Shown: positions 1-28,940 of the stretch, piece by piece
Numbering within the stretch: the stretch's first letter is position 1
Layout of the letters: each line of letters opens with the position of its first letter
Source of the DNA: Thermoanaerobaculia bacterium
GTDB taxonomy: Bacteria > Acidobacteriota > Thermoanaerobaculia > Multivoradales > JAHEKO01
DNA length: 64,000 bases
NCBI GenBank assembly: GCA_049664225.1
Contig: JBATEX010000114.1
Span: forward strand, 56,351-120,350
Direction of reading: 5' to 3'
Notes under the pieces: model-generated
The model's input: the letters and a program-made list of their open reading frames with translations, nothing else
Databases searched by the model: none
Told to the model about the DNA's origin: nothing
Program-made: the position numbers and the translations under genes

Positions 1-456
1 GTGCTGTACCTTCTTTGCCTTCCAGGACTCGATCTCCGAATGGCAGGTAGCGCATAGTTCGTTGGGCTGATCGAGGAGCATCCCACGAATATTGCCGCCA
101 TGAGGTTGATGACATTGGGTACATGCGCCTTCGGCGAACGGCTGATGAATGACTGTTCGCTGGGCTGCAAGGGTGGTGTTGGGGTGGCAGGAAGCGCAAA
201 GGACACCGGGCCTCTCCAGCAGCAACCCGGCAATTCGCGAGACGTGTGGATTGTGGCACGCGATGCAGTCGCCCTCCGTGATCGGCGGGTGAGGGAATTT
301 GCTGGCCATCGCTTCATCGAAATCGTGGCACTCGAGACAGACTCGACCGTCCTGCGCGCTGGCCAGCGAGGGAGAGGCCTCACTCCGATCGGGCCCGAGC
401 ACCAATGCGAACCACAACGCAGCTAGTAATCCGACGCAGCTGAGCAGCGTTTTCAC
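1..456 (-). CDS. multiheme cytochrome c, partial (3' part lies beyond window start)
   Basis: Reverse-strand reading from a GTG at 456-454 gives VKTLLSCVGLLAALWFALVLGP... (signal-peptide-like). It continues with CLECH, CIACHNPH, CASCH, CTQCHQPH and CATCH motifs to position 1 without a stop. The GTG overlaps the TGA stop of the upstream 26-haem gene (GTGA). This ORF is not in the track because it is incomplete. Confidence 0.6.
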   Translation of the reverse strand, partial: MKTLLSCVGLLAALWFALVLGPDRSEASPSLASAQDGRVCLECHDFDEAMASKFPHPPITEGDCIACHNPHVSRIAGLLLERPGVLCASCHPNTTLAAQRTVIHQPFAEGACTQCHQPHGGNIRGMLLDQPNELCATCHSEIESWKAKKVQH

Positions 457-2414
457 TGAGCACCTCCTGACGGCTCTGTCACCGCTTCGTGGCAAGCGGA
501 ACAGTCGCCGGCAGCAAACGGGTCGTGTTGCTGCGGCTGTAGTAGACCTGTCATCAGCGAAGCATGCGGGTCGTGGCAGGATGCACATTCGAGACCGTCG
601 CCTGAAAACCCAAGGTGGTCTGCGGTGAATCCCGTATCGCCGGTCTCGTGGCACTGCCCACAGGTAGCGCTCTCGCTGTCCAGTAGCAGGTTTCGCTCCG
701 CCGTTGCATGGGGACCATGGCAGCCGAGGCAGCCATCGGGCTCGCCGGCTGGTTGATGTACAGTCTCGGTAGCCAACCGTTCACCCAGATCCGAATGGCA
801 GGTGAAGCAAAGGGCAGGTATCGCAGCGCGAAGCAGAGGCTCCCTTTCACTTGCGTGTGGCTGGTGGCAGGCCGAGCATTCGTTGGCAGCGGGCGCATGC
901 AAGCTGCCGCCTTCCTCCGGCGCATCCGCTGTGTCGTGACAGGTGCGACACAGCCGCCCCGGCGACTCTGTAAGGAGGAACTCGACATCGGAGCCGTGGG
1001 GCAGATGGCAGGTTGCGCACTCACCCTCCTCGAAGGGGACATGTAACTGACGTTCTGTCGGCGAGGTTTCTGACGAATGACATTCGGAACACAAATCCTT
1101 GCCCTGTGCTAGCAGGAGTCCGGTGTTTCCACCGTGGGGCGTATGACACCCGGTGCATTCGCCGCGGGCTACAGGTTCGTGAAGAACTCGCAGACCGGCG
1201 CGGGCTCCGATGCCACCGTGACAGTCGCCACACAGATCATCCTGCCGAGCCACCAGAAGTCCCTCGCGACCGGAGCCATGCGGAGCATGGCAGAGGGTGC
1301 AGCTCTCTTCCAGAGGAGAGTGGCTGACTTCGACATCGCCCGCCGGATCACCATGGCAGTCAAGGCACAGTTGCCGCTCTGTTGTGCGCAACAGTGCGGG
1401 ATGGTTCGATTCGTGTCCGCTGTGGCAATTTGTGCACTGCTCCATCGCGGCGTGCGGATGGCTACCGGATCGGAACTGCTCGGCTTCGGTATGACAGGAA
1501 GTACAGAGCAGCAGCTCGCTGTTCGCGAGTAGAGGAGCGGTCGCTGAGGTGTGGGGCTGGTGACAATCCAGGCAGAGCCCACCGGCTGCCGGTCCATGCG
1601 TCGAGGTGGCGGAGCCGGTCGGAGGATCATGGCAATCCAGACAGATCTTGGCGTCGGGCAGATTCGCCAACTCACTGTCGTCCCGGTGGCAGGACGTACA
1701 GTCGAGATCTGGATGGACGGAGGCCAGCAGCAGTCCTTCCGAGGCCCCCGAATGAGGAGAGTGACAGCTGGTGCACTGACTGCCTGTGGGCTGCAGCCCT
1801 CCATGGGCGGCACGAAGCCCGTCGCCAGAGTCGTGACACTCGAAGCAGAGCGATGCTGCAGGCAACGCGAGTAGTTGCTCTTCGGTACTGCCGTGAATCG
1901 CGTGACAAGACAAACATCCGCCGTCCATCGCAGCGTGTTGCGCACTACCCTCGAAGCTGGAGCTCCCGTGGCAGGAGAGACACATCTCCTTCTCCGGCTG
2001 CTGAAGCAAACCGGCGTTGTCGGACCCATGAGGGTTGTGACAGGTGGAACAAGCTTCGATATTTGGATGTCGCACAGCGCTGTCGAGCCCCAGATCCTCA
2101 CTCGAGTGGCAATCCGAACAGAGCTCGAGCTCGTCGCTCTTGAGCCTCAATACACCCACGATTCCGTGTGGCTGATGGCAGGAGGTGCAATCTCCTCCGA
2201 TCATCGGTTCATGGGCGAAGGCGACCGGCTTGACGCTGTCGGCATGACAGTCGGCACAGGTTCCTCCCCGATCGAAGCGAGAGCCGCGCTTCAGCTGCGC
2301 CATCGCCGGAGCCGTTGCCATGAGACTCCAGAGCAGGACGACTGCTCCGGCCGTGGCCAGCCAGGGAAGCCCAGGACCCGAGCACTTGGTTGTCTTGGAG
2401 ATGAATCCAGTCAT
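453..2414 (-). CDS. 26-haem c-type cytochrome with periodic CxxCHxPH repeats
   Basis: I count 26 CxxCH motifs in the translation. The predicted signal peptide is MTGFISKTT...ATAPAMA|Q. I trimmed the start to the internal Met at 2414 because the track start at 2501 overlaps the upstream gene by 68 nt; the true start remains uncertain. Confidence 0.85.
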   Translation of the reverse strand: MTGFISKTTKCSGPGLPWLATAGAVVLLWSLMATAPAMAQLKRGSRFDRGGTCADCHADSVKPVAFAHEPMIGGDCTSCHQPHGIVGVLRLKSDELELCSDCHSSEDLGLDSAVRHPNIEACSTCHNPHGSDNAGLLQQPEKEMCLSCHGSSSFEGSAQHAAMDGGCLSCHAIHGSTEEQLLALPAASLCFECHDSGDGLRAAHGGLQPTGSQCTSCHSPHSGASEGLLLASVHPDLDCTSCHRDDSELANLPDAKICLDCHDPPTGSATSTHGPAAGGLCLDCHQPHTSATAPLLANSELLLCTSCHTEAEQFRSGSHPHAAMEQCTNCHSGHESNHPALLRTTERQLCLDCHGDPAGDVEVSHSPLEESCTLCHAPHGSGREGLLVARQDDLCGDCHGGIGARAGLRVLHEPVARGECTGCHTPHGGNTGLLLAQGKDLCSECHSSETSPTERQLHVPFEEGECATCHLPHGSDVEFLLTESPGRLCRTCHDTADAPEEGGSLHAPAANECSACHQPHASEREPLLRAAIPALCFTCHSDLGERLATETVHQPAGEPDGCLGCHGPHATAERNLLLDSESATCGQCHETGDTGFTADHLGFSGDGLECASCHDPHASLMTGLLQPQQHDPFAAGDCSACHEAVTEPSGGAQ

Positions 2415-2433
2415 GATCTCGACGCAAACCCTC

Positions 2434-4179
2434 TCAAGGTAAGCCGTGCGCCCCCGGCTCGTCGCCGGTGGCGCTTTCGGCATTGATCTGTAGCGATGCA
2501 ATGTGATCCTCGTAGAACCGGATGTCCGAGTTCTCCCGCAGCGTCATGAGAAGGCTATCCATGGTCTCGGCAAACTTGAGGGACTTGAGACGGTTTCGGA
2601 CGTTTCCCGACACCTCTTCGAATGAATAGTCGCCCTGTTCCTCGACCGCTGCAACTCGCAGAACCACGAAGTTGTCCTCCCACCCCTTGGGGCCGAGAAT
2701 CTCGCCTGCCTCCGTCACTCGCAGCTCGGAGGGACTGAAGGGCTCGATCGCTCGACCCGATTTGATCCACCCGCGATCGCCGCCACTGTCTTTGAACCGA
2801 TCGATAGAGCGCTGGCGGGCAATCCACGACATGTCGGCACCTTCGCGCAAGAGTTGGGCGACCTCTTCAGCCTCCTCCAGCGTGGTAGTGGTGACCTGGA
2901 AGATCCTCAGGTTCGGGGGCTTGCGAAACTCCGGGCGATGCGTTTCATAGTACTGCTCGGCCTCCTCTTGGGGAACCTCGAGGCTTGGCAAGATCACCTC
3001 GTCCAGGTATTTGCCGACCAGAAGTCGGGTCAGATTCGCCTGTTGAGCCCGCTCGACGTCTGGCGAATCACCATAGCCCATGGCCAGGGCCTCGACGAGG
3101 ATCACTTGCTCGGCGATGAGCTTATCGAGAACCAGAGGCTTGGTGAGAAGCGCTGCCTCTTCGTTTTGTACGTTGCGCCAGCGGTCGAGCAGAGCGGCCC
3201 CGAGGTCATCAGCACGAATCAAGCGGTCTTGGATTTGCACAAGGATCTGTTTGGGGTCCGGGACCACCGGCCATAGCCCCTCGCTGCCCCGGCGTTCACA
3301 CCCTATGGCGGCAATGGCCTCGTTGTCGATCTCTGGCTCATGCTTGGCGAGTAGCTCTGCCAGAAGTTCTGCCCTCAGGGTGTCCGCCTGGCGCAACTCG
3401 AGGATCCCCCGAATCCGATCCTCGACCGTTGGCAGGACTTGCGGATCAGCGGCAGCGAAGCTCTCGGCGCGGAACACCGTCCATCCCAGCTCGTTGAGAA
3501 GGGGAGCTGACAGGCTGCCTGGCTCCAGATCGAAGACGACTTCGGCGATCTCGGGAGGCAGGTTCCTGTAGGGGAAATTCTCTGCCAGTCCCCCTTGCCC
3601 TCTCAGGCCGTCGACCGAACGCTCCCTGGCGAGAGCCTCGAAATCTGCACCGGCACGGATCTCGTCGAGGAATCGGCCGGCCTCCTCTCGGGACTTCAAT
3701 GTTGCCATGTGAGCGGTGACTGTGCGGTAGTCCGACTCGAAGATCGTCTCGATCAGACTCTCGTCGATCTCGACTCGGCTCGTGATCGCCTCGTACTCGA
3801 GCCTCTCACGGGCCATGTCGTCGCGCAGTTTTTCGAGTCGCTTCGGAATGGGAGCTTCGCGATCCATCGCCAGGGCCGCGGCCTCGCCTGCGAGGAGAGC
3901 ATCCCCAACCAGCCTATTGCGGATGAGTGAGTCGACGTCGAAGTCGGGCCGCGAGGAAGCCTGAATCCGAGAGTGGAGATCGGAGAGTACCCTTTCCAGG
4001 TCCTCTACATAGACTGGCCAGTCGTTGACCATGGCCAATAAGTTCTTGTCGACAGCGACCTCTTTGGGGATTGCGCTCGAAGTCGGCTCTTCTGCCTGAG
4101 TCCCAGCCGGATGGGCGACGACTGCAAACCCAGCGATGAGGGCCAGTTGGATTGGTAGGGCCAGAAATCTGGTTGACAT
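2434..4179 (-). CDS. SurA/PpiD-like periplasmic chaperone with two PpiC (parvulin) PPIase domains
   Basis: Signal peptide MSTRFLALPIQLALIAGFAVVAHPA. There are two parvulin-like segments (...FEALARERSVDGLRGQGGLAENF... and ...MSWIARQRSIDRFKDSGGDRGWIKSG...). The ATG at 4177-4179 overlaps the TAA stop of the upstream gene (TAATG). Confidence 0.7.
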   Translation of the reverse strand: MSTRFLALPIQLALIAGFAVVAHPAGTQAEEPTSSAIPKEVAVDKNLLAMVNDWPVYVEDLERVLSDLHSRIQASSRPDFDVDSLIRNRLVGDALLAGEAAALAMDREAPIPKRLEKLRDDMARERLEYEAITSRVEIDESLIETIFESDYRTVTAHMATLKSREEAGRFLDEIRAGADFEALARERSVDGLRGQGGLAENFPYRNLPPEIAEVVFDLEPGSLSAPLLNELGWTVFRAESFAAADPQVLPTVEDRIRGILELRQADTLRAELLAELLAKHEPEIDNEAIAAIGCERRGSEGLWPVVPDPKQILVQIQDRLIRADDLGAALLDRWRNVQNEEAALLTKPLVLDKLIAEQVILVEALAMGYGDSPDVERAQQANLTRLLVGKYLDEVILPSLEVPQEEAEQYYETHRPEFRKPPNLRIFQVTTTTLEEAEEVAQLLREGADMSWIARQRSIDRFKDSGGDRGWIKSGRAIEPFSPSELRVTEAGEILGPKGWEDNFVVLRVAAVEEQGDYSFEEVSGNVRNRLKSLKFAETMDSLLMTLRENSDIRFYEDHIASLQINAESATGDEPGAHGLP

Positions 4180-5252
4180 TATCGTCCTACTCCTGTGAGT
4201 TCGAGAGATGGAGATTGATCGGCGAGATCGCTGGTCAGTCGAGCCAATAGCACCGTCAGCAGTTGGCCACGGGAGTATATGCGACGGCCCCGAAAGATCG
4301 TCTGCCGAAACCAGCCGTCACGCTCCAGTGCTCCGGTCCAGACAATTCTTCCGCTCTCGGCGTCGAGTCCTCGCAGAGCGACGGCTACAAAGGGTCTTGG
4401 TTCGGTGCCGGGACCTGCTTCATAGGCTTCGACCGATCCGGTGAGGATCAAGTTGACCTGGCACTCTTCTGCGATGGCGGTCCAGACCTCTCGGCTCAAC
4501 TCGCCCCACCTCCGAGCCCGGTGCTGCCGCAGAACCTCGGCAATTCGGTTTGGAGCCACGATGTCGACCCCGTTTTCTCGGAGCACGGAGTAGAGCGCTT
4601 GCGTGGCTGCGTCGGCGGTGGCAGACGCACGTCTCGCGCTGCTACTGCTCAGGGGTAGGACCGCTATCCTTCCGACAGCGGCCTGCCAATTCGCGCTTGA
4701 TGACGAAGATTCGAGAGGGCGGGGAGCCTCCTCGGCCGTGAGGTCGAGTTGGTCGACAAGATCCAGCAGCGCGAGGTCAGCGAGTCGATCGAGGTCCCAG
4801 ACCTCTCCGAGCCCGAGGAAGTGCAGTCCATCGATGCCGGTTGCGCTCTTGAATGCGCTGCGCGAGTCCTCCGGGGAATCTCCCCTTACCGCCAGAGCAG
4901 AGAGAGTGATGGTAGGTACAGGACGGCTGCGGGATTCATGGAGGGTCACTGAAACGAGCCAGTCGGCCTTCAGAGCTGCTGCTAGTCGAGCGAGGTTCTC
5001 GGCCCCGGCATCGTCAACCTGACGAATTCGGAGCTGGCGAAGAGTGTCGCGCACGTGATTGCGCTCGACCACGGGCCCGGTTCCGAGGAGAAGATTCTCC
5101 AGGTATGTCGCTATTCTCGCCGTCGTGACCGGGTCCGATGCGCGATCCCGCACCGAAATGATCGCCGAGGCCGGCAGCTGCCCTGAGGAGCTGGCCTCGG
5201 CAACGATAGGAAGCAGAACAAGAACGGCAACAAGGCTTGGGCGTAGGCGCAC
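4179..5252 (-). CDS. periplasmic protein with two tandem LpoB/TolB-N/CsgG-like alpha/beta domains
   Basis: Signal peptide MRLRPSLVAVLVLLPIVAEA. Two repeats carry the pattern (I/V)xV-P-L...A..L...L...G...V and ...LILTGSVEAYEAG...RPFVAVALRGLDAESGRIVWTG, which echoes the 204-aa lipoprotein next door. Confidence 0.5.
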   Translation of the reverse strand: MRLRPSLVAVLVLLPIVAEASSSGQLPASAIISVRDRASDPVTTARIATYLENLLLGTGPVVERNHVRDTLRQLRIRQVDDAGAENLARLAAALKADWLVSVTLHESRSRPVPTITLSALAVRGDSPEDSRSAFKSATGIDGLHFLGLGEVWDLDRLADLALLDLVDQLDLTAEEAPRPLESSSSSANWQAAVGRIAVLPLSSSSARRASATADAATQALYSVLRENGVDIVAPNRIAEVLRQHRARRWGELSREVWTAIAEECQVNLILTGSVEAYEAGPGTEPRPFVAVALRGLDAESGRIVWTGALERDGWFRQTIFRGRRIYSRGQLLTVLLARLTSDLADQSPSLELTGVGR

Positions 5253-5274: not shown

Positions 5275-5889
5275 TCAATCGAGAAGAGTATCGAGCAGCT
5301 TTTGGATGCACCGGCGGGTCGTCTCGGCTAGAGGTTCGCCACCCGTGCCCAGCAGGCGAGCGCCGACCGTGCTCCCCTTCTCGGTGTGAGTGGCGGCCCA
5401 GACGATGGCTCCGGTATCGGTTTCGATCATCTGGGCGTCGAGGGTGACAACGGGTCGAAGGGCGGATCCGAATCGCATGACCTCGGATTGGGCGACCGTG
5501 CCAATCACAACCGCCTGTACCCCCAGAGCCTGACCGAGGCCCAGGGCTTCTTCGGAACTGGGTGCGGTCATCCTGCCGCTGCCCATCTTGCGCATCGCCG
5601 CCTGTACCTCGCCCGGCTCGACCACGTCCAGAGCGCCGCTGGCAAGGAGCTCGGTGATCAGCAGGCGCGTAGCCCGCTCGCCGGCCTGAGAATCGGAGCT
5701 CAAATTGGCGAAGGGAATCACCGCCACCCGCTGGACGTATGAGAAATCAAAGCCGGGGTTGGCGAATTGAGTGGTCGGAAGGCTGCTCGAGCAGGCGAGC
5801 AGCGCCATCAAGCCTGTCGAGGTCAGCAGGATGAGAGAGACCCGATTGAGAGTCGTGATTCGCGATTTGCCCATGAACTTGGCCCCCAT
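5275..5889 (-). CDS. lipoprotein of the LpoB/TolB-N/CsgG-like fold
   Basis: Lipobox ...GLMALLAC|SSS. It has the motifs VAVIPFANLSSD...ATRLLITELLASGALDVVEP...VVIGTV...VTLDAQMIETDTGAIVWAA, which parallel E. coli LpoB (LLVDSVNN...LQMQLMLVQTGEIIWSG) and CsgG core strands. Its start abuts the barrel's stop codon (TGAATG). Confidence 0.6.
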   Translation of the reverse strand: MGAKFMGKSRITTLNRVSLILLTSTGLMALLACSSSLPTTQFANPGFDFSYVQRVAVIPFANLSSDSQAGERATRLLITELLASGALDVVEPGEVQAAMRKMGSGRMTAPSSEEALGLGQALGVQAVVIGTVAQSEVMRFGSALRPVVTLDAQMIETDTGAIVWAATHTEKGSTVGARLLGTGGEPLAETTRRCIQKLLDTLLD

Positions 5890-7986
5890 TCAATAGAAGA
5901 AGATGCTGAAGCCGAACAGCAGACTGTTGGTTTGTGAGGTCAGATCACCCCTGAAAGTCACCTCGGATCGGTTCCATCTGCCGGTGAGCAGAACCCGCGG
6001 GTTCAACCGATAGTCAGCCCCAACGGATGCGCCCGACGTCTTTCGCTCCGAGTCGGTGCTGCTTTGGTTGTAGGAAACATTGACGCTCAACTTCGGTCCC
6101 GGAACGAAGAAGATACCGTACCGCTGGCCGGTCGACGTTTGTTCGTTGTCTCGGGACCAAGAGAATAGGCCATTGAGAAACAGGAACGACCCGGGGCTCC
6201 AGGTCGACCCGACCTTGAAGAACTGTCGCTCCAACAGGCTTTCTTGGAGTGGCGATTCGATGAGCGAGTAACCGAGTGCACCATCGAGAGTCCAACGCTG
6301 TGTCGGCCTCGACCTGAGATCCTCACGCCATGACCATGTATTGCGATCCTGATCTCCGGTCGGATCAGTGAGTTCGGAATAGGAGAGAGTGGAAGTCAAG
6401 TCGAGGTCGGGCAGCAAGGCGGTAAACACTCTGAGACGGATGGCGTCGACGGTCTGGAGCAACAGCTCCTTCTCGGCTTGGTCCCTCCGGCTTGCCGAAA
6501 GGACTGCGTCGAGCGTTGGCAGCGGCACCCATCGCAGTGCCGCATCGATCGTCTCGGTCGTGCGAAACAGACCCCCAGCCGTGCGATTCTCGGAGTCGCT
6601 GTAACGATAGCCGCCACTGAGCTCGAGATCCGAAGTCAATCGAACCCCGACGCTGCCCGACGCGTGACGTTCGTTGAAGTCGCGCCGCACAATGCCCGCC
6701 GTCACGGTCTCGTCGTTGCTGCCTCCGAGGTTGAACCTGGCTGTCACTCGGCGTGAGGGGCGCAAGCCGAGAGAAACATCCCCACGATAGAGTGTACTGT
6801 CTTGGGTGCTCTCTCCCGGCTCGATGTCGAGGTCTCTGAAAGCGGCAATCTCAGTCACCAGGACCACTGGAACCACGTTGGGTGAGATGTTGACGACCTT
6901 GAAGAAACGCTGGTTGGTCTCAGGAAAGCTGACTCTATAGAGCTGTCGACCAGCGTCGAATTCCGCCGACTCGCCCGCTACCCGCTCCCAGATCAGGTTG
7001 TCGGCGCTCTGAAACACCTGCCACAGCACGGCGGGGCCCGAAGGCCGATCGACCGAGACCTCGAGACGCGAGACAGGCAGAATCGCGCCGACGTCGATGC
7101 CGAGATTCCGAAAGGCGTTACCACCACCGATATCGATGATCGGAGGGGAGGGAGTAAAACGGTCGCCGTCGATGAGTCCAGGAGCGGGCTCGAGCTCGCC
7201 AACCTCCGGTGAAGTATCGATCGCGTAGAGGCCCTGAACCGCTGGAATCGGCTCGGCGAGGTCGTCATCTCCAGAGGTCCTCGACTGACTCTCGATGCGA
7301 CCCGCCGAGCCCGAGAAGCCCAGGCGGAGGCGCTCGTCGAAGAAGCCACGGCTTCCCGCCAGTCTCAATCGATGGACATCCTGGAGCGAGGCGAAGTCGG
7401 TAGATTCCTTCTCCAGGTCGTTGCGATTGAAGGAGTATCCCGCAGACCACCGTTTCCGCCTGTAGGTCGCATCGAAGAGGTAGGTGCGTTGGTGACCATC
7501 CCGGCCCAGGGCCGACACGTCGGCCTCGTTCTTGGAGTCGCGCGCCTGGCCCGAAAGAGTCAGCCCCCTCGTTGCGCGCCACGAGAAGCCGCCAAACAGC
7601 GCGTCAGACTGAAAGTCCTCGCTTTCGAAGGTTCCCTGAGACGTCCGCCGCTCAGCTCCCAGGTATGCGGACAAGGATGGCCTGTCATAGAGCAGCTGAA
7701 ATCGGGGATTCTGTCGGGTGCGGCTCGCCTCCGGTAGGCCGCTGAACTGGGAGGTGTAATCATAGTAGCGATAGCCGGCCTGCAATTTCAAGAAAGGCGC
7801 CAATTCCTCGGTCAGCCTCAGCGAGTACTTTTGCTCGAGGTTGTCACTGTCGGTCGCCAGGGTGTCGACGGATGTCCAGTAGACGATGGCGGTCGCGTTG
7901 AAGTCGAGGGCAAGAGCGAGTTGAGGCGAGGTCAAGAACGCAACGAGGGCGACTCGAGCCAACAGCTGTTGAAGGTCCAGGCGCAT
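5890..7986 (-). CDS. large outer-membrane beta-barrel protein (698 aa) with an internal soluble insert
   Basis: Signal peptide MRLDLQQLLARVALVAFLTSPQLALA. The body shows alternating hydrophobic/polar amphipathic strand patterns. The C-terminus ...LLFGFSIFFY ends in an aromatic residue, as in BAM-dependent OMPs. A polar/Pro-rich insert of about 150 aa (DDDLAEPIPAV...VTEIAAF) sits mid-protein. Confidence 0.7.
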   Translation of the reverse strand: MRLDLQQLLARVALVAFLTSPQLALALDFNATAIVYWTSVDTLATDSDNLEQKYSLRLTEELAPFLKLQAGYRYYDYTSQFSGLPEASRTRQNPRFQLLYDRPSLSAYLGAERRTSQGTFESEDFQSDALFGGFSWRATRGLTLSGQARDSKNEADVSALGRDGHQRTYLFDATYRRKRWSAGYSFNRNDLEKESTDFASLQDVHRLRLAGSRGFFDERLRLGFSGSAGRIESQSRTSGDDDLAEPIPAVQGLYAIDTSPEVGELEPAPGLIDGDRFTPSPPIIDIGGGNAFRNLGIDVGAILPVSRLEVSVDRPSGPAVLWQVFQSADNLIWERVAGESAEFDAGRQLYRVSFPETNQRFFKVVNISPNVVPVVLVTEIAAFRDLDIEPGESTQDSTLYRGDVSLGLRPSRRVTARFNLGGSNDETVTAGIVRRDFNERHASGSVGVRLTSDLELSGGYRYSDSENRTAGGLFRTTETIDAALRWVPLPTLDAVLSASRRDQAEKELLLQTVDAIRLRVFTALLPDLDLTSTLSYSELTDPTGDQDRNTWSWREDLRSRPTQRWTLDGALGYSLIESPLQESLLERQFFKVGSTWSPGSFLFLNGLFSWSRDNEQTSTGQRYGIFFVPGPKLSVNVSYNQSSTDSERKTSGASVGADYRLNPRVLLTGRWNRSEVTFRGDLTSQTNSLLFGFSIFFY

Positions 7987-8247: not shown

Positions 8248-9381
8248 TTACGGAATAATCAGGCTATCGAAAATGTCCTGGCCGTGGCACTTGTTGCAGA
8301 GCGAACGCGTAACCAGGTCGGCCGGGTACGGATTCGGCAGTGGGTAGGTCCCGAAGGCGTCGCCGTCCTCTTCCAGAAAGGTCACGTTGAAGTCCCAGCG
8401 GCCGGAGTCGGCAGCCGAGGATGCGTGCGCGAAATGGCAGGTCACACAGGCGACCACGCTGGAATCCTGAGCACCGACGGTCGAGCCTATGTCGGTTTCA
8501 TCGAAGGTCGAATCTTCGAAGGGCACCTGCCATAGGTAGGCTGTGGCTGCGGTACCGCTGCCACAGGGCGGTGCAGTGGAGGCGACACAGTCGGTCGTTC
8601 CCATGTAGGCGTTGTACTGCTCCCAGACTTCTTCCATGGATTCGCCCGAGGGATGGATGTCGCGGCCTGAGCCCTGATGGAACAGGCCATGGCACGTCGA
8701 GCACCACGCGCTGTAGTTCAAGACGTAGACATTGTGCTCAGGATCGACCCGTGGGTCGTTGCTCAGTGACTGTCCATACGCTTCGATGGTCGCGGCGTAG
8801 GTGACCGACGAAACGCCGAGATCCACTTCCTGGTCTTGACGATAGAGGAGCCGGAAACTGTCGTTGCCGTGTGGGTCGTGGCAGCTCGAGCAGGCGATGT
8901 CGTTGTCTACGGTATTGCTGCTGCCGGGTGCCCAGTCGAGGGTCTGGTCGACATCGGTACCCTTGATATTCGACGCGATGTTGTGGCCAGCCGCGTCGCC
9001 AGGAATCGGAGCGCCACGTGTCGACTCGGCTAGATTGGCTTCGGTCAAGAAGCTGAAGTCACCAGCGTTTCCGAAGTCGACGGGGTCTGTCGCATCGGGA
9101 CTCCACACCGAGTAGCTCCTGCCTGTACGGCCATGGCAGCGCAGGCAAACGTCACTCCTGTTCGGAAAGAGAAGGAGGTCGTTGTAGCCTTCGCCAGGGA
9201 GTTTGTCTGGGTTGATCGGATTGCCGTTGGCATCCGCCTCGGTGCCGTTCATGGCAACACCGTTCTGGCTGTTGTGCATGGTGTGGCAACCGTTGCAGTG
9301 AGCGACACCACCGTCATGGAAAGCCATGACCGGGGTGGCGAGGATCACTGCGGCGGCCACCAGTAGCAGGGTTTTTTTCAT
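8248..9381 (-). CDS. secreted hexahaem c-type cytochrome, OmcS-like (candidate nanowire subunit)
   Basis: Start at the internal Met (MKKTLLLVAAAVILATPVMA|F) preceded by AAGGAG. There are six CxxCH motifs (CNGCH, CLRCH, CSSCH, CSTCH, CVTCH, CNKCH). The mature N-terminus FHDGGVAHCNGCHTMHN resembles Geobacter OmcS as I recall it (FHSGGVAECEGCHTMHN; Phe1 and His16). The C-terminus ...LCNKCHGQD is also similar. Confidence 0.75.
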   Translation of the reverse strand: MKKTLLLVAAAVILATPVMAFHDGGVAHCNGCHTMHNSQNGVAMNGTEADANGNPINPDKLPGEGYNDLLLFPNRSDVCLRCHGRTGRSYSVWSPDATDPVDFGNAGDFSFLTEANLAESTRGAPIPGDAAGHNIASNIKGTDVDQTLDWAPGSSNTVDNDIACSSCHDPHGNDSFRLLYRQDQEVDLGVSSVTYAATIEAYGQSLSNDPRVDPEHNVYVLNYSAWCSTCHGLFHQGSGRDIHPSGESMEEVWEQYNAYMGTTDCVASTAPPCGSGTAATAYLWQVPFEDSTFDETDIGSTVGAQDSSVVACVTCHFAHASSAADSGRWDFNVTFLEEDGDAFGTYPLPNPYPADLVTRSLCNKCHGQDIFDSLIIP

Positions 9382-9456
9382 TTGGCTTCTCCTTTGTTCA
9401 AAGTAACCGGAGTTCCGGTTGGTTTGCGTTTCTATTCTCCCTCGGCCCTCTATGTG

Positions 9457-9472
9457 AGCAAGGGGCATGCCA
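9457..9472 (-). promoter_or_regulatory. sigma-54 (-24/-12) promoter for the cytochrome/barrel operon
   Basis: The minus strand reads CTGGCATGCCCCTTGCT, i.e. TGGCAT-N5-TTGC against the consensus TGGCAC-N5-TTGC. It lies about 75 nt upstream of ATG 9381. An NtrC-family activator is encoded just upstream. Confidence 0.6.
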
Positions 9473-9656
9473 GGTCCCGAGGCTCGCTTGGTTGATTGAA
9501 ATGCGAGGATAAATAGCCATTCGTGCATGGGCGTAAAGCCTCTAATTGCTGAGGTTTACCATTCAAAGTGCTGGTGCTCTCGATGAAAACGGAGCGACCT
9601 TGGAGCATGCCCCGAGCCCTCACCACGATCATTAGAAGGCTTGTGGGGCGTTTGGG

Positions 9657-9674
9657 TGGGGAATATTCCCCACT
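9657..9674. promoter_or_regulatory. 18-bp perfect palindrome, candidate enhancer (UAS) for the sigma-54 activator
   Basis: GTGGGGAATATTCCCCAC lies about 200 bp upstream of the sigma-54 -12 element. Confidence 0.45.
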
Positions 9675-9802
9675 TTGGGAGAGCTTGTGCGGAATTTCAC
9701 AAGGTGTGCCGAGGAGATATAGCACTTCTTCGATGGGATCTGGAGAATCCGCCTGAAACGGCAGCTGGGTCGGTATCAGGACAACGACAGAGTTGTCAGG
9801 GG

Positions 9803-10198
9803 TCAAGTCTCGGGTGTCTCACTGCCCTTGACTTTGTACTCGTTGTAGCGCACCAGGCGCTCGAGCTGCTCCTTGAGATCGGAAGCGTGGTAGGGCTTCT
9901 CGATGAAGAAGCAGGAGTGATTCAGGGGGCCGAGGCCGGCCTCTTCGGGGCTGTGAAACACGCAAGATTCAAACAGTACCGGGATTTTCGGCGACCGACC
10001 CTGGCAGAGATCCTGGAACTCTCTCCAGGGAAGGCCGTCGGGGCCGATGTTGGCTATGACGGCCTCGGGCGGCCGTTTCTCGAGGGCCGAGAGAGCGTCG
10101 TCGAAGGTGGAGACCTCTTCGAGATCGACCTGGCCGTCGAGAATTCTCTTGATGATCGAGATCAACAAATGACTGCCGTCGAGGACTAGGAACCGCAT
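9803..10198 (-). CDS. stand-alone CheY-like receiver-domain protein (possibly atypical)
   Basis: I chose the second ATG, which is preceded by GGGAGGG: MRFLVLDGSHLLISIIKRIL...AVIANIGPDGLPW...IPVLFES...IEKPY. This is a receiver fold. By my manual alignment the usual phospho-Asp position appears to be Asn. The ORF-track N-terminal extension overlaps a repeat and was not used. Confidence 0.5.
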   Translation of the reverse strand: MRFLVLDGSHLLISIIKRILDGQVDLEEVSTFDDALSALEKRPPEAVIANIGPDGLPWREFQDLCQGRSPKIPVLFESCVFHSPEEAGLGPLNHSCFFIEKPYHASDLKEQLERLVRYNEYKVKGSETPET

Positions 10199-10286
10199 TT
10201 CGCGCCCTCCCATTTCATGCAGAACGGTCAATACAAGTGCAAGGAATGGGCCAGGTGTGACGCGAGGTCCAAGAGTCGGTGGGGAT

Positions 10287-10328
10287 CCCAGGGGGCTTTC
10301 CTCCCTCCCGGTGCAAGAACCCCCTGAG
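10287..10328. repeat. family B hairpin element (CCAGGGGG / CCCCCTGG stem with a conserved ~24-nt loop), copy 1 (divergent loop)
   Basis: CCCAGGGGGCTTTCCTCCCTCCCGGTGCAAGAACCCCCTGAG. Confidence 0.7.
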
Positions 10329-10480
10329 ATCCCCAACGACACCTGGACCAGATCCTCGTCGTCTGCGCAAGACCCGAGTACGGGAACCGGTGATGTTGCG
10401 CCGTGCACGCCCACCCACCCCGGCCGGCAGAGGCGCCACGGGCGGGGGCAAGCGCAGACCCGACGAAGAATGGTGGTCAT

Positions 10481-10506
10481 CCAGGACCCAGGACCCAGGC
10501 CCCAAG
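10481..10506. repeat. short tandem repeat (CCAGGAC) 3 times, same heptamer family as 14877
   Basis: CCAGGACCCAGGACCCAGGCCCCAAG, adjacent to the family-C fragment GGCGGGGGCAAGC at 10441-10454. Confidence 0.7.
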
Positions 10507-10518
10507 ACGGGTGGGGCG

Positions 10519-11880
<1,362 letters not shown>

Positions 11881-11887
11881 GGGCTAA

Positions 11888-13573
11888 TCAAGCGGGGTCG
11901 TTTCCCGGGAGCGCCGGTTCTGTGAGTTCTGACTCGTCAAGTGCATCGCTGTCTGATGTCGGTGCCGGCTCTTCACCCTCTTCCCCTGGAAGGATCAAGT
12001 AGAAGTTCGTTCCCTTGCCGACTTCGGAATCGACTTGCAGCGTACCACCGTGCTGCTCCACGAGGCTCCGAGCGATGGCCAGTCCGAGGCCTGTCCCTGA
12101 GAACTTGGTGGAGAAGAAGGGCTCGAATACACGCTTGAGCTGTTCGGGTGGGATGCCGGGGCCGTCGTCTTGCACCGCCAGCACGATGCCGCCGCCTTCT
12201 GGGAAGCCGCTAGCACGAACCGTGACGGCCCCACCGTCCTCCATGGCTTCGGCGGCGTTCTGGATGAGGTTGAGGAGCACCTGCCGAATCTTCGAGCCGT
12301 CGATCTGGGCCTCCAGGGGGCCTTCGGTTAGATCGAGCTCCAGGGCCACGTTCTGGCGTCGCAAACCGGGGGCCATGAGGATGCGGACGTCGTCCAACAG
12401 CTTGTTGAGATCGGTTTTCGCCAAGCGGGCCGGGCCGGGTCGTGCCGAGCCGAGCAGGCTGCGCAGCGTCCCATTGACCCGCTTCAGCTCGCTCAGCATC
12501 TCGTCGTACAGCTCTTTGTTGGAGTCGCTTACCGATGGTTCTTCCCGCAAGATCTCCAGTGCACCCTGAATTCCGGCCAGGGGATTCTTGATTTCATGGG
12601 CAAGACCGGCCGCCAGGCTGCCGAGGCTCGCCAGCTGGTCAGTGTGGGCCAGTTTGGTAGCTACCTCCGCTTGCCGGCGACGCTGCCGCTGCAGGAACTG
12701 CTGGAGGGAGCGCTGGAGCTCCGCCGAATGGGGGTCGAGGACCAGCCGGTGGGCTCCGGAGGCCGGTCCCTCGCCCGACTCGGCGGCGGCCAGTTCCTCT
12801 TCGAATTTGCTGGAGAAACGTTGCACGGATCGCCTAACCAGGGCGTTGATGCCGCCCAGGGCCGCTGCCCAGGCCAGCAGGAGGAGTCCGACATTACGCC
12901 GCGAGTGCTTTCGGACCGTTTGGAGAGCGTTGGTGACGTCCATGCTCATGGAGGCGACGGCAAGCGTTTCACCAGCGGAGTGGCAGCGCACGCACTGCTC
13001 CGTGGAAATCACTTTGCTAATACCCCGCACCCTTTCGCGATCTCCCTCTGCACTGAGCCACACCTCCTGCAAGCGTGGGCTGGGAATGAACTCCTGCACG
13101 ACCTCGAGCTCTGGGACCGTGATTCCGGTGGCGGCTCCAATTGTCCTTCCGTCAGGAAACATCAGTTTGAGATTCATGCCCTGGTGGCCGGCCAGAACCG
13201 CCTCGAACATGTGGCGGACACCGCCGCCACGGGTGTGTGCAACGGCGATCTGGTTGAGTTCTCGAGTCGCGATATTCAGTCTTCCTTCGGCTGTTTCGCG
13301 AGCCAGGCCCACGACTTCCATCTCCGTGATGCGGACCGTCGCGAAGTAGAGAATCCAAAAGGCGAACAGGTGCAGGGGCAGAGTGATCAGCCAGAAGCGC
13401 CCACGGCGAGCCATGAAAGCGCGGAACCGGGCCCGCCTACCGGGCCTGCTCAGGACCTCCACAGGTCCATCGGAAGAGTCGATCTCGGGGAGTTCCCCGT
13501 TGGTCTCTTCGCTGCCGGCAACGCCAGGCTCGATCGCTCCTTCGATGGGTCCCTCGGATTCCTGCGATGTCAT
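11888..13573 (-). CDS. sensor histidine kinase with a periplasmic CxxCH (haem-c) sensor domain
   Basis: TM1 FWLITLPLHLFAFWILYFATV. A periplasmic segment of about 170 aa contains CVRCH (nt ~12980-12994). TM2 VGLLLLAWAAALGGINALV. H-box LAHEIKNPLAGIQ. HATPase motif GTGLGLAIARSLVEQHGGTL. The start is ambiguous (M at 13573 or 13414). Confidence 0.85.
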   Translation of the reverse strand: MTSQESEGPIEGAIEPGVAGSEETNGELPEIDSSDGPVEVLSRPGRRARFRAFMARRGRFWLITLPLHLFAFWILYFATVRITEMEVVGLARETAEGRLNIATRELNQIAVAHTRGGGVRHMFEAVLAGHQGMNLKLMFPDGRTIGAATGITVPELEVVQEFIPSPRLQEVWLSAEGDRERVRGISKVISTEQCVRCHSAGETLAVASMSMDVTNALQTVRKHSRRNVGLLLLAWAAALGGINALVRRSVQRFSSKFEEELAAAESGEGPASGAHRLVLDPHSAELQRSLQQFLQRQRRRQAEVATKLAHTDQLASLGSLAAGLAHEIKNPLAGIQGALEILREEPSVSDSNKELYDEMLSELKRVNGTLRSLLGSARPGPARLAKTDLNKLLDDVRILMAPGLRRQNVALELDLTEGPLEAQIDGSKIRQVLLNLIQNAAEAMEDGGAVTVRASGFPEGGGIVLAVQDDGPGIPPEQLKRVFEPFFSTKFSGTGLGLAIARSLVEQHGGTLQVDSEVGKGTNFYLILPGEEGEEPAPTSDSDALDESELTEPALPGNDPA

Positions 13574-13604
13574 TCGGCTCGGGTGACCTCGGCTTGAATT
13601 CCGG

Positions 13605-14423
13605 CTAGGTGGTCTTATTGCCCCTGAGCGCCATGAAGACCAGGAGAATGCCCACGCCGATGACAATCAGGCCTGGAACCAGCCAGGGAGACACTCCCTC
13701 GGATGGAGGTGGTCCGGCCTGGCTTGCAGCTCCACTGGTAGGCACTGACGCAGGAGACTGGAAGGTCTGAGCTGGTGTCTGTGGAACAGCCGATTGCATG
13801 GCGTTCGCAGTGAGCATCGGGGAACTCTTCGTGTAGTCGATTTCGATCGCGAAGGTCTGGTCGACGGCTGCCGGGCCGAGGTCTCCGCGTTGATAGATGA
13901 GGCCGTCGTTGGCCAGGGCGGGTGCGCTGCTAGCGGGCTGCACCACGAAACCGGTAGCGCCGATCGGTTGCATGACCTCGAACAGGACGCGATCTGCTGC
14001 CAAGCCCCCAGGCCATTCGAAGTGGTAGTGGCGGTTCTCGTTGCCCAAATCGAGGGGTATGTAGTACTCGAGGCGAATCTCGGGAGCGTCGGTCGAGATG
14101 TAGACCGTGCTCATAGGGTCGCCGGCTTCCAGCATGGACTGGGCGACAAGCAGATCGCCCCCTGGGAACCTCTTTGCCACGGCGCTCGGACTCCCTGCCG
14201 CGGCTGGAATCGGCAACGGTACCGAGGTCGGAAGTGGGGTGTCTGGCGAGAGAAAGCCCCGAAGCATCACGAGCACCGAAGGCTGGTCGTACTCCGGCCA
14301 GATGGAGATCTCCAGGCGCTCGAGGCGCGGCGTGGCCGGTGCAGGCGCTTCCTGGGCGGAAGCAATGCCTGCCGAGGTCAAGAGTAGGACAAGGAAGGCG
14401 AGAGTCGTTGGCCTGGTCTTCAT
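13605..14423 (-). CDS. secreted protein with a C-terminal membrane anchor, function unknown
   Basis: Internal-Met start with signal peptide MKTRPTTLAFLVLLLTSAGIASA|Q. C-terminal helix WLVPGLIVIGVGILLVFMAL. It sits immediately upstream of, and overlaps, the kinase gene. Confidence 0.45.
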   Translation of the reverse strand: MKTRPTTLAFLVLLLTSAGIASAQEAPAPATPRLERLEISIWPEYDQPSVLVMLRGFLSPDTPLPTSVPLPIPAAAGSPSAVAKRFPGGDLLVAQSMLEAGDPMSTVYISTDAPEIRLEYYIPLDLGNENRHYHFEWPGGLAADRVLFEVMQPIGATGFVVQPASSAPALANDGLIYQRGDLGPAAVDQTFAIEIDYTKSSPMLTANAMQSAVPQTPAQTFQSPASVPTSGAASQAGPPPSEGVSPWLVPGLIVIGVGILLVFMALRGNKTT

Positions 14424-14509
14424 CGCTTGTGCAATCTCCGCCCGGCCGGCAGGGGCGCCGGCCGCGTCAATCATAGTGTGAATCATGGATAACGATGCCG
14501 GTCGTTTCA

Positions 14510-14640
14510 GGCGGGCGGGGGCAAGGCCCGCCCCTACACTGTGAGTCGTAAGTTGTACCTCACCCTTTCACTACAACCTGATGTAGGGGCGCCCCTTGCG
14601 GGCGCCCGAGGGAGGGGGGCACCCTCCCCTACGTATCCCT
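14510..14640. repeat. family C-related hairpin elements (partial copy and variant copy)
   Basis: GGCGGGCGGGGGCAAGGCCCGCCCCTACACTG at 14510-14545. GTAGGGGCGCCCCTTGCGGGCGCCCGAGGGAGGGGGGCACCCTCCCCTAC at 14583-14632. A further fragment GGGCGGGGGCAAGCCCCGCCCCTACA lies at 14839-14864. Confidence 0.6.
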
Positions 14641-14823
14641 TCGCGCGATTCTAGCGACCAACAGGCCCACGAACCAAGCGACAGTTAGCCATACGAACAT
14701 CCATTCCAGAACGTGGCTGGGCTCATCTCCTGTCGTGATGTCATCCAGAGCCGCATAGCAGAGGACCAGAAGGGCGATGGAGATCGTGATGGTGAGGAAC
14801 CGTTTCATAGACACCGCCAACAA
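14629..14823 (-). CDS. small two-TM membrane protein (hypothetical)
   Basis: The 64-aa ORF has two hydrophobic helices and is flanked on both sides by family-C structured repeats. Coding status is uncertain. Confidence 0.3.
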   Translation of the reverse strand: MLAVSMKRFLTITISIALLVLCYAALDDITTGDEPSHVLEWMFVWLTVAWFVGLLVARIARRDT

Positions 14824-14876
14824 CGATGCATCACCAAGGGCGGGGGCAAGCCCCGCCCCTACATTCGATGATGTTT

Positions 14877-14960
14877 ACCCAGGACCCAGGACCCAGGACC
14901 CAGGACCCGGGACCCAAGCCCCTGCGCCCCTAAGCCCTTGAGCCCCTACGCCCTGCTTCT
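14877..14960. repeat. short tandem repeat array: (ACCCAGG) about 6 times, then CCCCTNNG octamer variants
   Basis: ACCCAGGACCCAGGACCCAGGACCCAGGACCCGGGACCCAAG, then CCCCTGCGCCCCTAAGCCCTTGAGCCCCTACGCCCTG. Confidence 0.8.
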
Positions 14961-15957
14961 AGAGCTCCGCTTTCCAGGACTTGAGGATGTCCATGTAGTT
15001 GGCGCGCTCGTAGGCGCCGGGGTCGGGGCTGCGGCTGAGGTTCATCGAGCCCTTGGCCTGGGCCAGGGAGTCGTAGTCGTGGTCGATGAGCCACTGGGCC
15101 AGCTCGCGGCGCACGATGCGAAGGTAGTCGGGGCCGTGCTTGAGCAGGGCCGAGACCATCTGCACGGCGTCGGCACCGGTCATGATGGCTTTGACCGCGT
15201 CGATCTCGCCATGCACGCCGCCGCTGACCGCGAAGGAGCAGTCCAACTGCCCCGAGAGGATCGCCAGCCAGCGCAGTCGAAGGAGCAGTGCCGATGAGGT
15301 GGAAAGGACCAGGGTCCTCTGGACCTCCAGCTCTTCGACGTCGATGTCCGCCTGGTAGAAGCGGTTGAAAAGCACCAGGCCATCCGCCCCGGCATCCACC
15401 AGGCGCTTGCCGAAGTTGGCGAGCGAGGTGTAGTAGGCGGAGAGCTTGACCGCCACCGGGATCGAGATCTGTTGCTTGACCTCGGCGACGATCTCGACGA
15501 AGCGCTGCTCGAGCTCGGCACCGCTCTCGTTCGGGTCCGTGGCCAGGTGGTAGACGTTCAATTCCAGGGCGTTGGCGCCAGTCTCCTCGATGAGGCCGGC
15601 GTACTCCAGCCAGCGGCCCTTGGTGGTGCCGTTGAGGGAGCCGATGACGGGGACCTTGACGGCCTCCACGACCCTCCGCAACTTGTTCAGGTACTCGTCG
15701 GGGCCATAGGGTAGCGAGTCGGGCTCTGGAAAGTACGACAGCGCTTCGGCGAAGGAGTTGGCCGGATCTTCCGTCAGGCGGGAAGCGGCGATCTCCTCGT
15801 GCGCGATCTGCTCTTCGAAGAGCGAGTTCATGCAGATGGCGGCGGCGCCGGCGTCCTCCAGCTGCTTCACGGTGTCCAGATCGTCCACCATGGGGGAGGC
15901 CCCGGGCATGAAGGGGTGGGGCAGGTCAAAACCTAGGTATCGAGTCGACAGGTCCAT
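14959..15957 (-). CDS. dihydroorotate dehydrogenase-like (PyrD/DHPD family) TIM-barrel flavoprotein
   Basis: N-terminus ...LGFDLPHPFMPGASPMVDD... resembles the PyrD-class motif. It also has ...IPVAVKLSAYY...GADGLVLFNRF. Confidence 0.55.
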   Translation of the reverse strand: MDLSTRYLGFDLPHPFMPGASPMVDDLDTVKQLEDAGAAAICMNSLFEEQIAHEEIAASRLTEDPANSFAEALSYFPEPDSLPYGPDEYLNKLRRVVEAVKVPVIGSLNGTTKGRWLEYAGLIEETGANALELNVYHLATDPNESGAELEQRFVEIVAEVKQQISIPVAVKLSAYYTSLANFGKRLVDAGADGLVLFNRFYQADIDVEELEVQRTLVLSTSSALLLRLRWLAILSGQLDCSFAVSGGVHGEIDAVKAIMTGADAVQMVSALLKHGPDYLRIVRRELAQWLIDHDYDSLAQAKGSMNLSRSPDPGAYERANYMDILKSWKAEL

Positions 15958-25983: not shown

Positions 25984-26210
25984 AGGCTCATCTCCTTTTC
26001 TTCAGAACGATCGCGTTCCAAGAGTTCCGCGGCGCGGCATTGTCATCATATCGAATTGCCGGCGCCAGGACCTACCCGTTCAGGTGGTGGGCCCTGGGCC
26101 ACGAAAGCGATAGTCTAGGTGCGGCAGAGGGCCGGGTCAGCGCCAACCTTGGTCGAGCTCTCCGATGTTTCTTTGTATCCTCGTTGGGACCTGAGAAGAA
26201 AGGAGACAGG

Positions 26211-27572: not shown

Positions 27573-28690
27573 TGGGTAACGAGCTGATTCCTGCTTTGGA
27601 CGCATTTCCGATTCCGGGACCGGTGTGGCTCTTTCACTTCCTGCTGGTTTTTACGTTCATCCTGCACATGCTGTTCATGAACCTGACGCTGGGCGGCACC
27701 ATCCTGGCCGCGTTGAGCCAGTTGTTCTCGAGGGGTAAGGCAGATGACTACAGGGCTGTAATGGCGATGCGACTGATGGGCATCAACACCTACGGCATCT
27801 CGCTGACGATCACCTCCGGCATAGCGCCGCTGTTGTTCGTACAGGTGCTCTACCAGCAATACTTCTACACTGCCACGATCATGATTGCGTGGACCTGGTT
27901 GATGTCCCTGGTGTTCCTGATGGTCGGCTACTACGCGGCCTATCTCTACAAGTTCAGGGGGACGCCGACGAAGGGTTCCGGTGGCACCGCGTGGCTGTGG
28001 CTCTCCGCGATCATGTTCTTCATCATCGCGATGGTGCATGTGGCGGTCAACCTCATTCACTCTCAGCCGGACAAGTGGGCGGCGCTGGCCGACAACCCGC
28101 TAGCGATTTTGGGTGATGCTGCGTTCTGGCCCCGACTCTTCCATTTCGTTTTCGCAGGATTGGGCTTCAGTGGGGTGGTCGTAGCGTGGTGGGCAGCGCG
28201 CCAGGCCGGCAAGGGCGTCGAGGTCGAGCTCAACACCAGGATCGCGAGCTACGCTTGGAAGTGGGCGCTGTGGACCACGCTGCTGCAGATTGCCGATGGG
28301 TTCCTGCTGGTCATGGTGCTGCCGCGACCGGTGCTGCTCGGCTTCATGCGGGGCGGCATGGCGACCATGCTGCCGTTCACCCTGGGCATTCTTCTTGCCC
28401 TCGGGCTGTTGGTGATGTTGGCCAAGGTGTCGAACCCGGTGGAGAAGTTCTCGACGGTCAACGGCACCCTGATGGGGATGATCGCCACGATCGCGATCAT
28501 GTCCATCACCCGGCACCAGATTCGGGCGATCTATCTCGAACCGGTGACTGCCCGATTCCGTTTGGAGACGGCGCCGCAGTGGGGCAACTTCACTTTATTC
28601 GCCCTGCTGCTCGTAGCGGGTCTCTACACCGTGTACTACATGGTCAGGGAGGTCCTCGAGAGTCGTGCAGCCGGGCAAGACGCCGCCTGA
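27572..28690 (+). CDS. second CydA-like membrane protein (cydA' paralog)
   Basis: The first helix WLFHFLLVFTFILHMLFMNLTLGG is close to E. coli CydA MYHFLFVPLTLG. The ATG overlaps the upstream stop. Confidence 0.45.
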   Translation: MGNELIPALDAFPIPGPVWLFHFLLVFTFILHMLFMNLTLGGTILAALSQLFSRGKADDYRAVMAMRLMGINTYGISLTITSGIAPLLFVQVLYQQYFYTATIMIAWTWLMSLVFLMVGYYAAYLYKFRGTPTKGSGGTAWLWLSAIMFFIIAMVHVAVNLIHSQPDKWAALADNPLAILGDAAFWPRLFHFVFAGLGFSGVVVAWWAARQAGKGVEVELNTRIASYAWKWALWTTLLQIADGFLLVMVLPRPVLLGFMRGGMATMLPFTLGILLALGLLVMLAKVSNPVEKFSTVNGTLMGMIATIAIMSITRHQIRAIYLEPVTARFRLETAPQWGNFTLFALLLVAGLYTVYYMVREVLESRAAGQDAA

Positions 28691-28940
28691 TGGCTCTTGC
28701 GTTCGAAAACGATCTGATGCGGAGCGGGCCCCTGGCTCGCTCCGTATTTTGTTTGTCGGCACGAAACACGACCCACCTGTTGGGATAGGCACCCAGTCCG
28801 CCCCAAGAGATATGGGAGATTGGTGGGAACGGGCGTATAAAAGGGCTCGAGGGTCGGGGTTCGGAGCTTGGTCCTAGCGAGACCAAGGCAGGGAAGAGTT
28901 CCGAAATACTTCACTTGCGCTGCTTGGAGGGGGGTTTGTC

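Follow-up and report, generated by a model that had tools for sequence, protein, structure and literature searches.

A sensor kinase gene beside a sigma-54 regulator and a cytochrome cluster

In a window of 64,000 nucleotides (by which we mean the whole stretch of DNA analysed, positions 56,351 to 120,350 of contig JBATEX010000114.1, assembly GCA_049664225.1, from a Thermoanaerobaculia bacterium of the phylum Acidobacteriota), a gene for a sensor histidine kinase is followed on the same strand by a gene for an NtrC-type sigma-54 response regulator, which starts 7 nt past the kinase stop, and then by a cluster of genes for multihaem c-type cytochromes and an outer-membrane barrel (Table 1). Acidobacteriota are abundant in soil; to our knowledge, little is known about the regulation of extracellular electron transfer in this phylum. 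We argue here that the kinase belongs to a divergent branch of haem-c Cache sensors, and that it very probably switches on the adjacent cytochrome/outer-membrane cluster via the sigma-54 activator.

The longest open reading frame (ORF) form of the kinase gene begins with TTG (11888..13666, minus strand), and the ATG at 13573 is internal to it; the gene calls of two close homologues, P0001 and P0002, also start at this ATG and open with MTSQE. A 19-residue hydropathy scan of the kinase reveals exactly two transmembrane (TM) segments, and CVRCH (codons TGC GTG CGC TGC CAC at 12994..12980 of the minus strand, specifying C194-V-R-C197-H198) can be read directly between them, just where the initial annotation had placed it. 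The 20 residues N-terminal of TM1 include 8 Lys or Arg and none that are acidic, so that the N-terminal flank should be cytoplasmic, and the CxxCH loop is predicted to be periplasmic because the kinase core after TM2 must be cytoplasmic; a cytoplasmic site for the motif can therefore be rejected. The loop had been annotated as a periplasmic segment of about 170 residues, and of this the location stands, whereas the length is 146 residues. The kinase has two Cys in all, both within CVRCH.

Judged by its sequence, the protein is a two-TM class I (HisKA) sensor histidine kinase with complete catalytic motifs (HEIKNP at 326, NLIQNA at 435, DDGPG at 469, and GTGLG at 493). In the full-length AlphaFold model, the TM2 helix runs to residue 212 (sensor numbering) and is followed by a connector, poorly ordered and about 15 residues long, after which a long helix starting at residue 228 leads into the DHp domain; the model is compatible with a linker that is HAMP-like in topology only. 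The HisKA and HATPase modules first annotated are borne out by Pfam, whereas the HAMP-like module is retained only as a helix-connector-helix topology.

A predicted haem-c Cache sensor domain

A word-indexed search of 5.8 billion proteins returned three relatives, all of them truncated and two visibly frame-shifted near the CxxCH. An exhaustive search of 1.84 billion cluster representatives with a two-sequence profile returned 50 proteins at E≤1e-3, 34 of these at E≤1e-10; the family is small. We aligned 43 homologues, with 22-49% identity to the window protein, and the sole invariant columns are the Cys, Cys, and His of CxxCH. This invariance, together with the appearance of a CxxCH in only 7 of 100,000 composition-preserving shuffles of the kinase sequence, leads us to reject a chance origin of the motif. 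PF21563 (Mcp40H-20_sensor), a model built on the haem sensors of Geobacter chemoreceptors, is matched by 13 of the 43, and PF11845 (Tll0287-like) by one member only, the GGDEF protein P0049 (E 1.5e-14). A whole branch of haem-c Cache sensors, the window protein among them, escapes these two Pfam models, and the 43-sequence alignment could seed a better one.

A profile of the sensor region (A4, 36 sequences) matches the crystal structures of GSU0582 (PDB 3B47, E 1.7e-12) and GSU0935 (PDB 3B42, E 9.1e-11) over essentially the full domain, and hhalign aligns the family to the Geobacter haem-c sensor domains with a probability of 97.3%. Modelled by AlphaFold2 with the family alignment (predicted local distance difference test score, pLDDT, 92.5; predicted template modelling score, pTM, 0.84), the sensor domain begins with a long helix, has a further helix and a sheet of five strands, and ends in a helix that continues into TM2. 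A short helix (residues 116-118 in model numbering) and the CxxCH (118-122) lie between strands 103-113 and 127-136, and an insertion between two strands is the position described for the motif in the sCache_haem class (PMC12889525). In a Foldseek search of the PDB, extracytoplasmic sCache sensors (WalK) rank first, the best matches being 9A5D and 4YWZ (query-normalised template modelling scores of 0.74 and 0.64), and 3B42 is found at rank 3; the root-mean-square deviation from 3B42 is large, as is to be expected, because the Geobacter crystal structures are domain-swapped dimers (PMC8396549). The model is thus a confident prediction of an sCache/PDC fold, and the sequence comparisons support assignment of the domain as a divergent sCache_haem member of the GSU0582/GSU0935 type. 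The initial annotation had proposed a periplasmic haem-c sensor of PAS type like these two, and the homology bears this out.

The outward-facing domain almost certainly carries covalent haem. The contrary reading, that CxxCH serves without haem as a thiol/disulfide redox switch or a Cys2His metal site in a cofactor-free sCache domain, could appeal to the facts that haem attachment is itself something we infer, that the single sequence matches no haem-sensor Pfam model, and that the distal ligand is not conserved; we nevertheless regard it as very improbable, for the His of the motif is kept, like both Cys, in 43 of 43 homologues, the homology to two crystal structures with covalent haem c extends over the full length, the motif occupies the equivalent structural position, and the host makes many c-type cytochromes, so that attachment machinery must exist.

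Loss of the distal methionine

The haem ligands of GSU0935 are His144 and Met60; upon reduction Met60 binds and the haem switches from high spin to low spin, and nitric oxide (NO) or carbon monoxide (CO) displaces Met60 (PMC8396549). In our alignment 23 of the 43 sequences have Met in the Met60 column, as part of an LHPxM motif; in the group formed by the window protein, which has Ala, and its 15 or so nearest relatives, the residue is Ala, Leu, Val, or Thr. This subclade conserves instead a His located eleven residues after the Met60 column (His68 in sensor numbering; motif xHxFE) that the Met-containing subclade lacks, and the pattern looks like a distal-ligand swap from Met60 to His68. The distal Met characterises the two Geobacter sensors rather than the sCache_haem superfamily at large, and since it is absent here, the coordination and sensing chemistry may differ from those in Geobacter. 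The difference between Met in one subclade and Ala with His68 in the other provides a natural comparison for the tuning of haem-c sensors by distal ligation.

The loss of Met60 adds interest to the nature of the signal. The same architecture and regulon could respond to NO, CO, or dioxygen (O2) at the distal haem face rather than to electron-acceptor availability or periplasmic redox poise: in the Geobacter domains NO binds to the oxidised and the reduced form alike, and CO to the reduced form (PMC8396549), Pseudomonas sCache_haem domains have been characterised as NO sensors (PMC12889525), and with the Met gone the distal site could be open or only weakly ligated, as would favour the binding of a gas. 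We think a gas signal rather unlikely, though deserving of serious consideration, because the conserved multihaem-cytochrome/porin target fits redox or acceptor control, the characterised precedent BccR (see below) responds to falling redox potential, and the subclade-conserved His68 may itself occupy the sixth coordination site.

Two further residues are conserved within the membrane: the His of a Pro-x-His in the middle of TM1 (His68 of the 561-residue protein, which is His15 in sensor numbering and distinct from the His68 just discussed) is kept in 37 of 39 homologues, and a Trp in TM2 in 38 of 39. A conserved mid-membrane His is unusual. The gene preceding the kinase, orf293, stops 31 nt short of the kinase start, and the two probably share a transcript; the encoded protein has no match in Pfam, NCBIfam, or PDB sequences, and synteny between orf293 and the kinase is confined to the subclade without the distal Met (L001 and L003-L006). 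The orf293 protein may be a co-sensor. Putting these features together, we would speculate that the subclade has remade haem-c Cache sensing, losing Met and gaining the xHxFE His, and has combined it with the TM1 His and orf293 into a two-input redox sensor. The idea is a doubtful one: the gained His68 would give a bis-His haem of lower potential or different gating, and the TM1 Pro-x-His, in a dimeric kinase, could bind another cofactor within the membrane or respond to the quinone pool. If true, such a sensor would read both periplasm and membrane, and govern extracellular electron transfer in Acidobacteriota; a distinct sensing mode arising from the ligand swap, the TM1 histidine, or orf293 would raise specialist interest in the system.

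Conserved gene order and candidate sigma-54 promoters

The regulator matches Response_reg (E 5e-26), Sigma54_activat (E 3e-63), and HTH_8 (E 7e-13) in Pfam, and a GAFTDA loop is visible in its translation; by sequence it is an NtrC-type sigma-54 enhancer-binding response regulator with all three domains. The kinase, the regulator, and the cytochrome cluster are syntenic in related loci L002-L006, and the order conserved in Acidobacteriota metagenome-assembled genomes (MAGs) is PFOR, a DHOD-like gene, orf293, kinase, regulator, small gene, cytochrome, barrel, lipoprotein, 357-aa gene, and PpiC. In the closest locus, L003, identity is 94.5% for PFOR and 80% for the kinase. Three divergent loci on unrelated contigs (L007-L009, 33-38% identity) also have the kinase followed by the sigma-54 regulator and multihaem cytochromes, and two of the three have NHL and PpiC genes as well. 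Altogether, ten loci, with kinase identities of 33-80%, keep the succession of kinase, sigma-54 regulator, and multihaem cytochrome, and because this order persists in divergent loci the association is a property of the family, not of this genome alone. The MAG that contains L006 (CAXMQZ010000041.1) is labelled Polyangiaceae, whereas the other syntenic loci are Acidobacteriota; the label may stem from mis-binning, or the cluster may have been transferred horizontally.

When the 64-kb window was scanned for TGGCAC-N5-TTGCW with at most one mismatch, only three matches were obtained, and two of these have the orientation of the genes and fall one in each of the two intergenic gaps that come next after the regulator. 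The putative promoter ahead of the 131-aa gene (TGGCCCATTCCTTGCA) is positionally conserved in L002-L007; the putative cytochrome promoter (TGGCATGCCCCTTGCT) has as its counterpart a perfect TGGCAC-N5-TTGCT at the same position in each of L002-L006 (5 of 5 loci). Upstream of the latter is a perfect palindrome (TGGGGAATATTCCCCA) that occurs once in the window and is conserved in L002-L006 amid otherwise unalignable sequence; the adjoining second dyad (TGTGAAATTCCGCACA) is conserved in the same loci. We regard the palindrome as a good candidate for the upstream activator site of the regulator. In L009 the palindrome core is on the downstream side of the promoter and falls within the called cytochrome gene, and in L008 we found no sigma-54 match at the scan thresholds, only a weaker GG-N10-GC site spotted by eye. 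A scan of 9400..15100 for sigma-70 promoters and terminators gave nothing above the shuffled background.

These motifs support a sigma-54-dependent target operon with properly spaced promoters and a candidate upstream activator site, and together with the family-wide gene order they strengthen the connection initially proposed between the kinase, the NtrC-type regulator, and expression of an extracellular cytochrome operon. Alternatively, the targets of the kinase/regulator pair might be genes elsewhere or its own operon alone; a different sigma-54 activator would then drive the cytochrome cluster, and the position of the cluster beside the pair would be a coincidence. This would be consistent with sigma-54 matches no commoner in the window than in shuffled sequence, with a link from regulator to cluster that is likewise inferred, and with the missing match in L008. 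We consider such a coincidence quite unlikely, in view of the gene order kept in the ten loci and of promoters and a palindrome that are positionally conserved where the surrounding intergenic sequence is not.

Proposed regulatory circuit and related systems

We think it probable that the haem-c Cache kinase acts on the NtrC-type regulator, and the regulator on the sigma-54 promoters of the cytochrome/porin cluster. Building on what sequence, homology, predicted fold, promoter motifs, and gene order show, we would picture haem binding, signal, phosphotransfer, and regulon as follows: i) the cytochrome-c maturation system would attach c-type haem to Cys194 and Cys197, with His198 as the proximal ligand; ii) a change in haem oxidation, spin, or coordination, caused by periplasmic redox poise or by binding of NO or CO, would move the N- and C-terminal helices of the domain; iii) by analogy, this movement would be transmitted via TM2 and the helix-connector-helix linker to DHp, and would set the autophosphorylation of His326; iv) the phosphoryl group would pass, as adjacency of the genes suggests, to Asp54 of the regulator; v) the regulator, probably bound to the palindrome, would activate sigma-54 RNA polymerase at the two conserved -24/-12 promoters; and vi) these would drive the pseudo-receiver gene (see below) and the cluster of cytochrome, barrel, lipoprotein, PpiC, and 26-haem cytochrome genes.

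Several observations weigh against this scheme. Searches with the N-terminal 260 residues alone turned up nothing meaningful in Pfam (E≤10), NCBIfam, or PDB sequences, and because the single sequence matches no entry there, membership in the domain class rests on the family profile. The distal Met60 is Ala here, so that the Geobacter His/Met spin switch is not directly transferable. No match to the Pfam HAMP model (PF00672) was obtained, either with the whole kinase at E≤0.1 or with the isolated linker at E≤1, and no cytochrome-maturation genes were found among the window ORFs checked. Sigma-54-like matches, counted over the window as a whole, are no more numerous than in shuffled sequence, and support for the promoters therefore comes from position and conservation only. 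Finally, in L002 (a contig of JGI 3300033154 with about 80% identity) a deletion of approximately 76 nt (L002:590-650) takes out exactly the CxxCH segment, shifts the frame, and splits the kinase into two gene calls; the deletion may represent a natural pseudogene or an assembly error.

The closest structural precedents are GSU0582 and GSU0935, chemoreceptors of Geobacter sulfurreducens that likewise have a periplasmic single-Cache/PDC domain between two TM helices and one CxxCH in an insertion between two beta-strands, and share with the window protein the glycine after the motif (CxxCHxxG). They differ in output, an MCP signalling domain where the window protein has a HisKA/HATPase kinase; in fitting the Pfam model PF21563, from which the window sequence is too divergent; in the distal ligand, Met60 in GSU0935 as against Ala, with His eleven residues later, in the window subclade; and in lacking the conserved TM1 Pro-x-His of the window family. 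The Tll0287-like/DUF3365 sensors (PF11845), which include NO-binding sCache_haem receptors of Pseudomonas, belong to the same haem-c Cache superfamily as the window domain, and sensors of this superfamily are fused to kinases, methyl-accepting chemotaxis proteins, and GGDEF domains (PMC12889525); unlike them, the window protein does not match PF11845, and it does not have the long insertion of P0049. The extracytoplasmic sCache kinases WalK, CitA, and DcuS have the overall fold and membrane architecture in common with the window kinase, but are cofactor-free ligand binders without CxxCH.

For the regulatory half of the circuit, the nearest parallel is BccR (GSU0598), a sigma-54 response regulator that induces G. 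sulfurreducens cbcBA as the redox potential falls (bioRxiv 10.1101/2021.04.15.440034). Like the window regulator, BccR combines a receiver, a sigma-54 AAA+ domain, and a helix-turn-helix, and is encoded beside a cytochrome operon driven from a -24/-12 promoter; the BccR target operon also encodes a small regulator-like protein, as does the window locus. The product of the gene adjoining bccR, GSU0599, has been listed among the Geobacter haem-c sensor-domain proteins (PMC3831638). We presume that it pairs with BccR. The target of BccR is an inner-membrane bc-type quinol oxidoreductase, whereas here it would be a cytochrome/outer-membrane-barrel cluster, and the host is Geobacter rather than a member of the Acidobacteriota; we liken the two systems by architecture.

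We wish to make clear that earlier work has described this class of sensor, kinases fused to it, and the control of respiratory cytochromes by sigma-54. The window kinase is an unusually divergent member from Acidobacteriota with a neatly conserved cis-regulatory layout, and extends known Geobacter biology rather than opening a new area. What the locus does offer is a compact and testable circuit (sensor kinase, sigma-54 activator, candidate palindrome, two promoters, and a cytochrome/porin cluster) that is conserved across several uncultured lineages.

Other genes of the locus and the window

Table 1. Features of the kinase locus and of the wider window (positions in the window; residue numbers of the kinase are those of the full-length protein)
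Feature	Position	Strand	Basis or remark
orf293, exported 293-aa protein with C-terminal TM anchor	13605..14486	minus	ORF; syntenic in L001, L003-L006
Sensor histidine kinase gene (561 aa)	11888..13573	minus	ORF; Pfam HisKA/HATPase_c
TM1 (residues 60-80)	13334..13396	minus	Hydropathy
Predicted periplasmic sCache_haem-type sensor domain (residues 81-226)	12896..13333	minus	AlphaFold, Foldseek, family profile
CVRCH, putative haem-c attachment motif (C194, C197, H198)	12980..12994	minus	Direct reading
TM2 (residues 227-246)	12836..12895	minus	Hydropathy
Cytoplasmic helix-connector-helix linker (residues 247-316)	12626..12835	minus	AlphaFold secondary structure
HisKA/DHp (residues 317-378), phospho-acceptor His326 in HEIKNP	12440..12625	minus	Pfam E 5e-13
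HATPase_c (residues 425-530), N/G1/G2 boxes	11984..12301	minus	Pfam E 3e-30
NtrC-type response regulator (receiver, sigma-54 AAA+, HTH_8)	10519..11880	minus	Pfam, NCBIfam
Putative sigma-54 -24/-12 promoter TGGCCCATTCCTTGCA	10238..10253	minus	About 40 nt upstream of 131-aa gene
131-aa receiver-like protein	9803..10198	minus	Response_reg match weak, E 0.089
Second dyad TGTGAAATTCCGCACA	9686..9701	minus	Adjoins palindrome
Perfect 16-bp palindrome TGGGGAATATTCCCCA	9657..9672	strandless	About 190 bp upstream of cytochrome promoter
Putative sigma-54 -24/-12 promoter TGGCATGCCCCTTGCT	9457..9472	minus	About 75 nt upstream of six-haem cytochrome gene
Six-haem c-type cytochrome, first gene of putative target operon	8248..9381	minus	Pfam, CxxCH count
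698-aa outer-membrane beta-barrel	5890..7986	minus	Weak MtrB/PioB and porin matches (Pfam); synteny
CsgG/LpoB-like lipoprotein	5275..5889	minus	Pfam; synteny
357-aa protein	4179..5252	minus	Synteny
PpiC-type rotamase	2434..4179	minus	Pfam; synteny
26-haem c-type cytochrome	453..2501	minus	Paired_CXXCH_1 E 7e-119; 26 CxxCH counted
Cytochrome-bd-subunit-I-like and cytochrome c fusion	26040..27572
Cytochrome-c7 and cytochrome-b561 fusion	28941..30845		CbcL-like architecture
NapC/NirT-type and other multihaem cytochromes	32427..35566; 36159..39131 (990 aa); 43550..45682
Cytochrome b	45274..46464

The genes of the putative target operon, from the six-haem cytochrome through the barrel, lipoprotein, and PpiC to the 26-haem cytochrome, are likely to encode an extracellular electron-transfer conduit. 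The small gene between the regulator and this cluster had been annotated as a stand-alone receiver. When its 131-aa product is aligned with six homologues (L002-L007) and with the receiver domain of the regulator, however, the window protein (AVIANIGPDG) and each of the six homologues have Asn where a phospho-acceptor Asp would stand, so that we reject a true phospho-accepting receiver and find phosphotransfer to the protein unlikely. By sequence the protein looks like a conserved pseudo-receiver, and it is possibly a feedback modulator.

Further along the window, 26040..46464 contains many further respiratory genes, a number of which are included in Table 1, and the region looks like an electron-transfer island. 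Beyond it, a GAF-HisKA_3-HATPase kinase gene (49847..51223, minus strand) adjoins a gene for a tandem universal-stress protein (48219..49142, minus strand); the pair makes up a second sensory module in the window, unrelated to the first.

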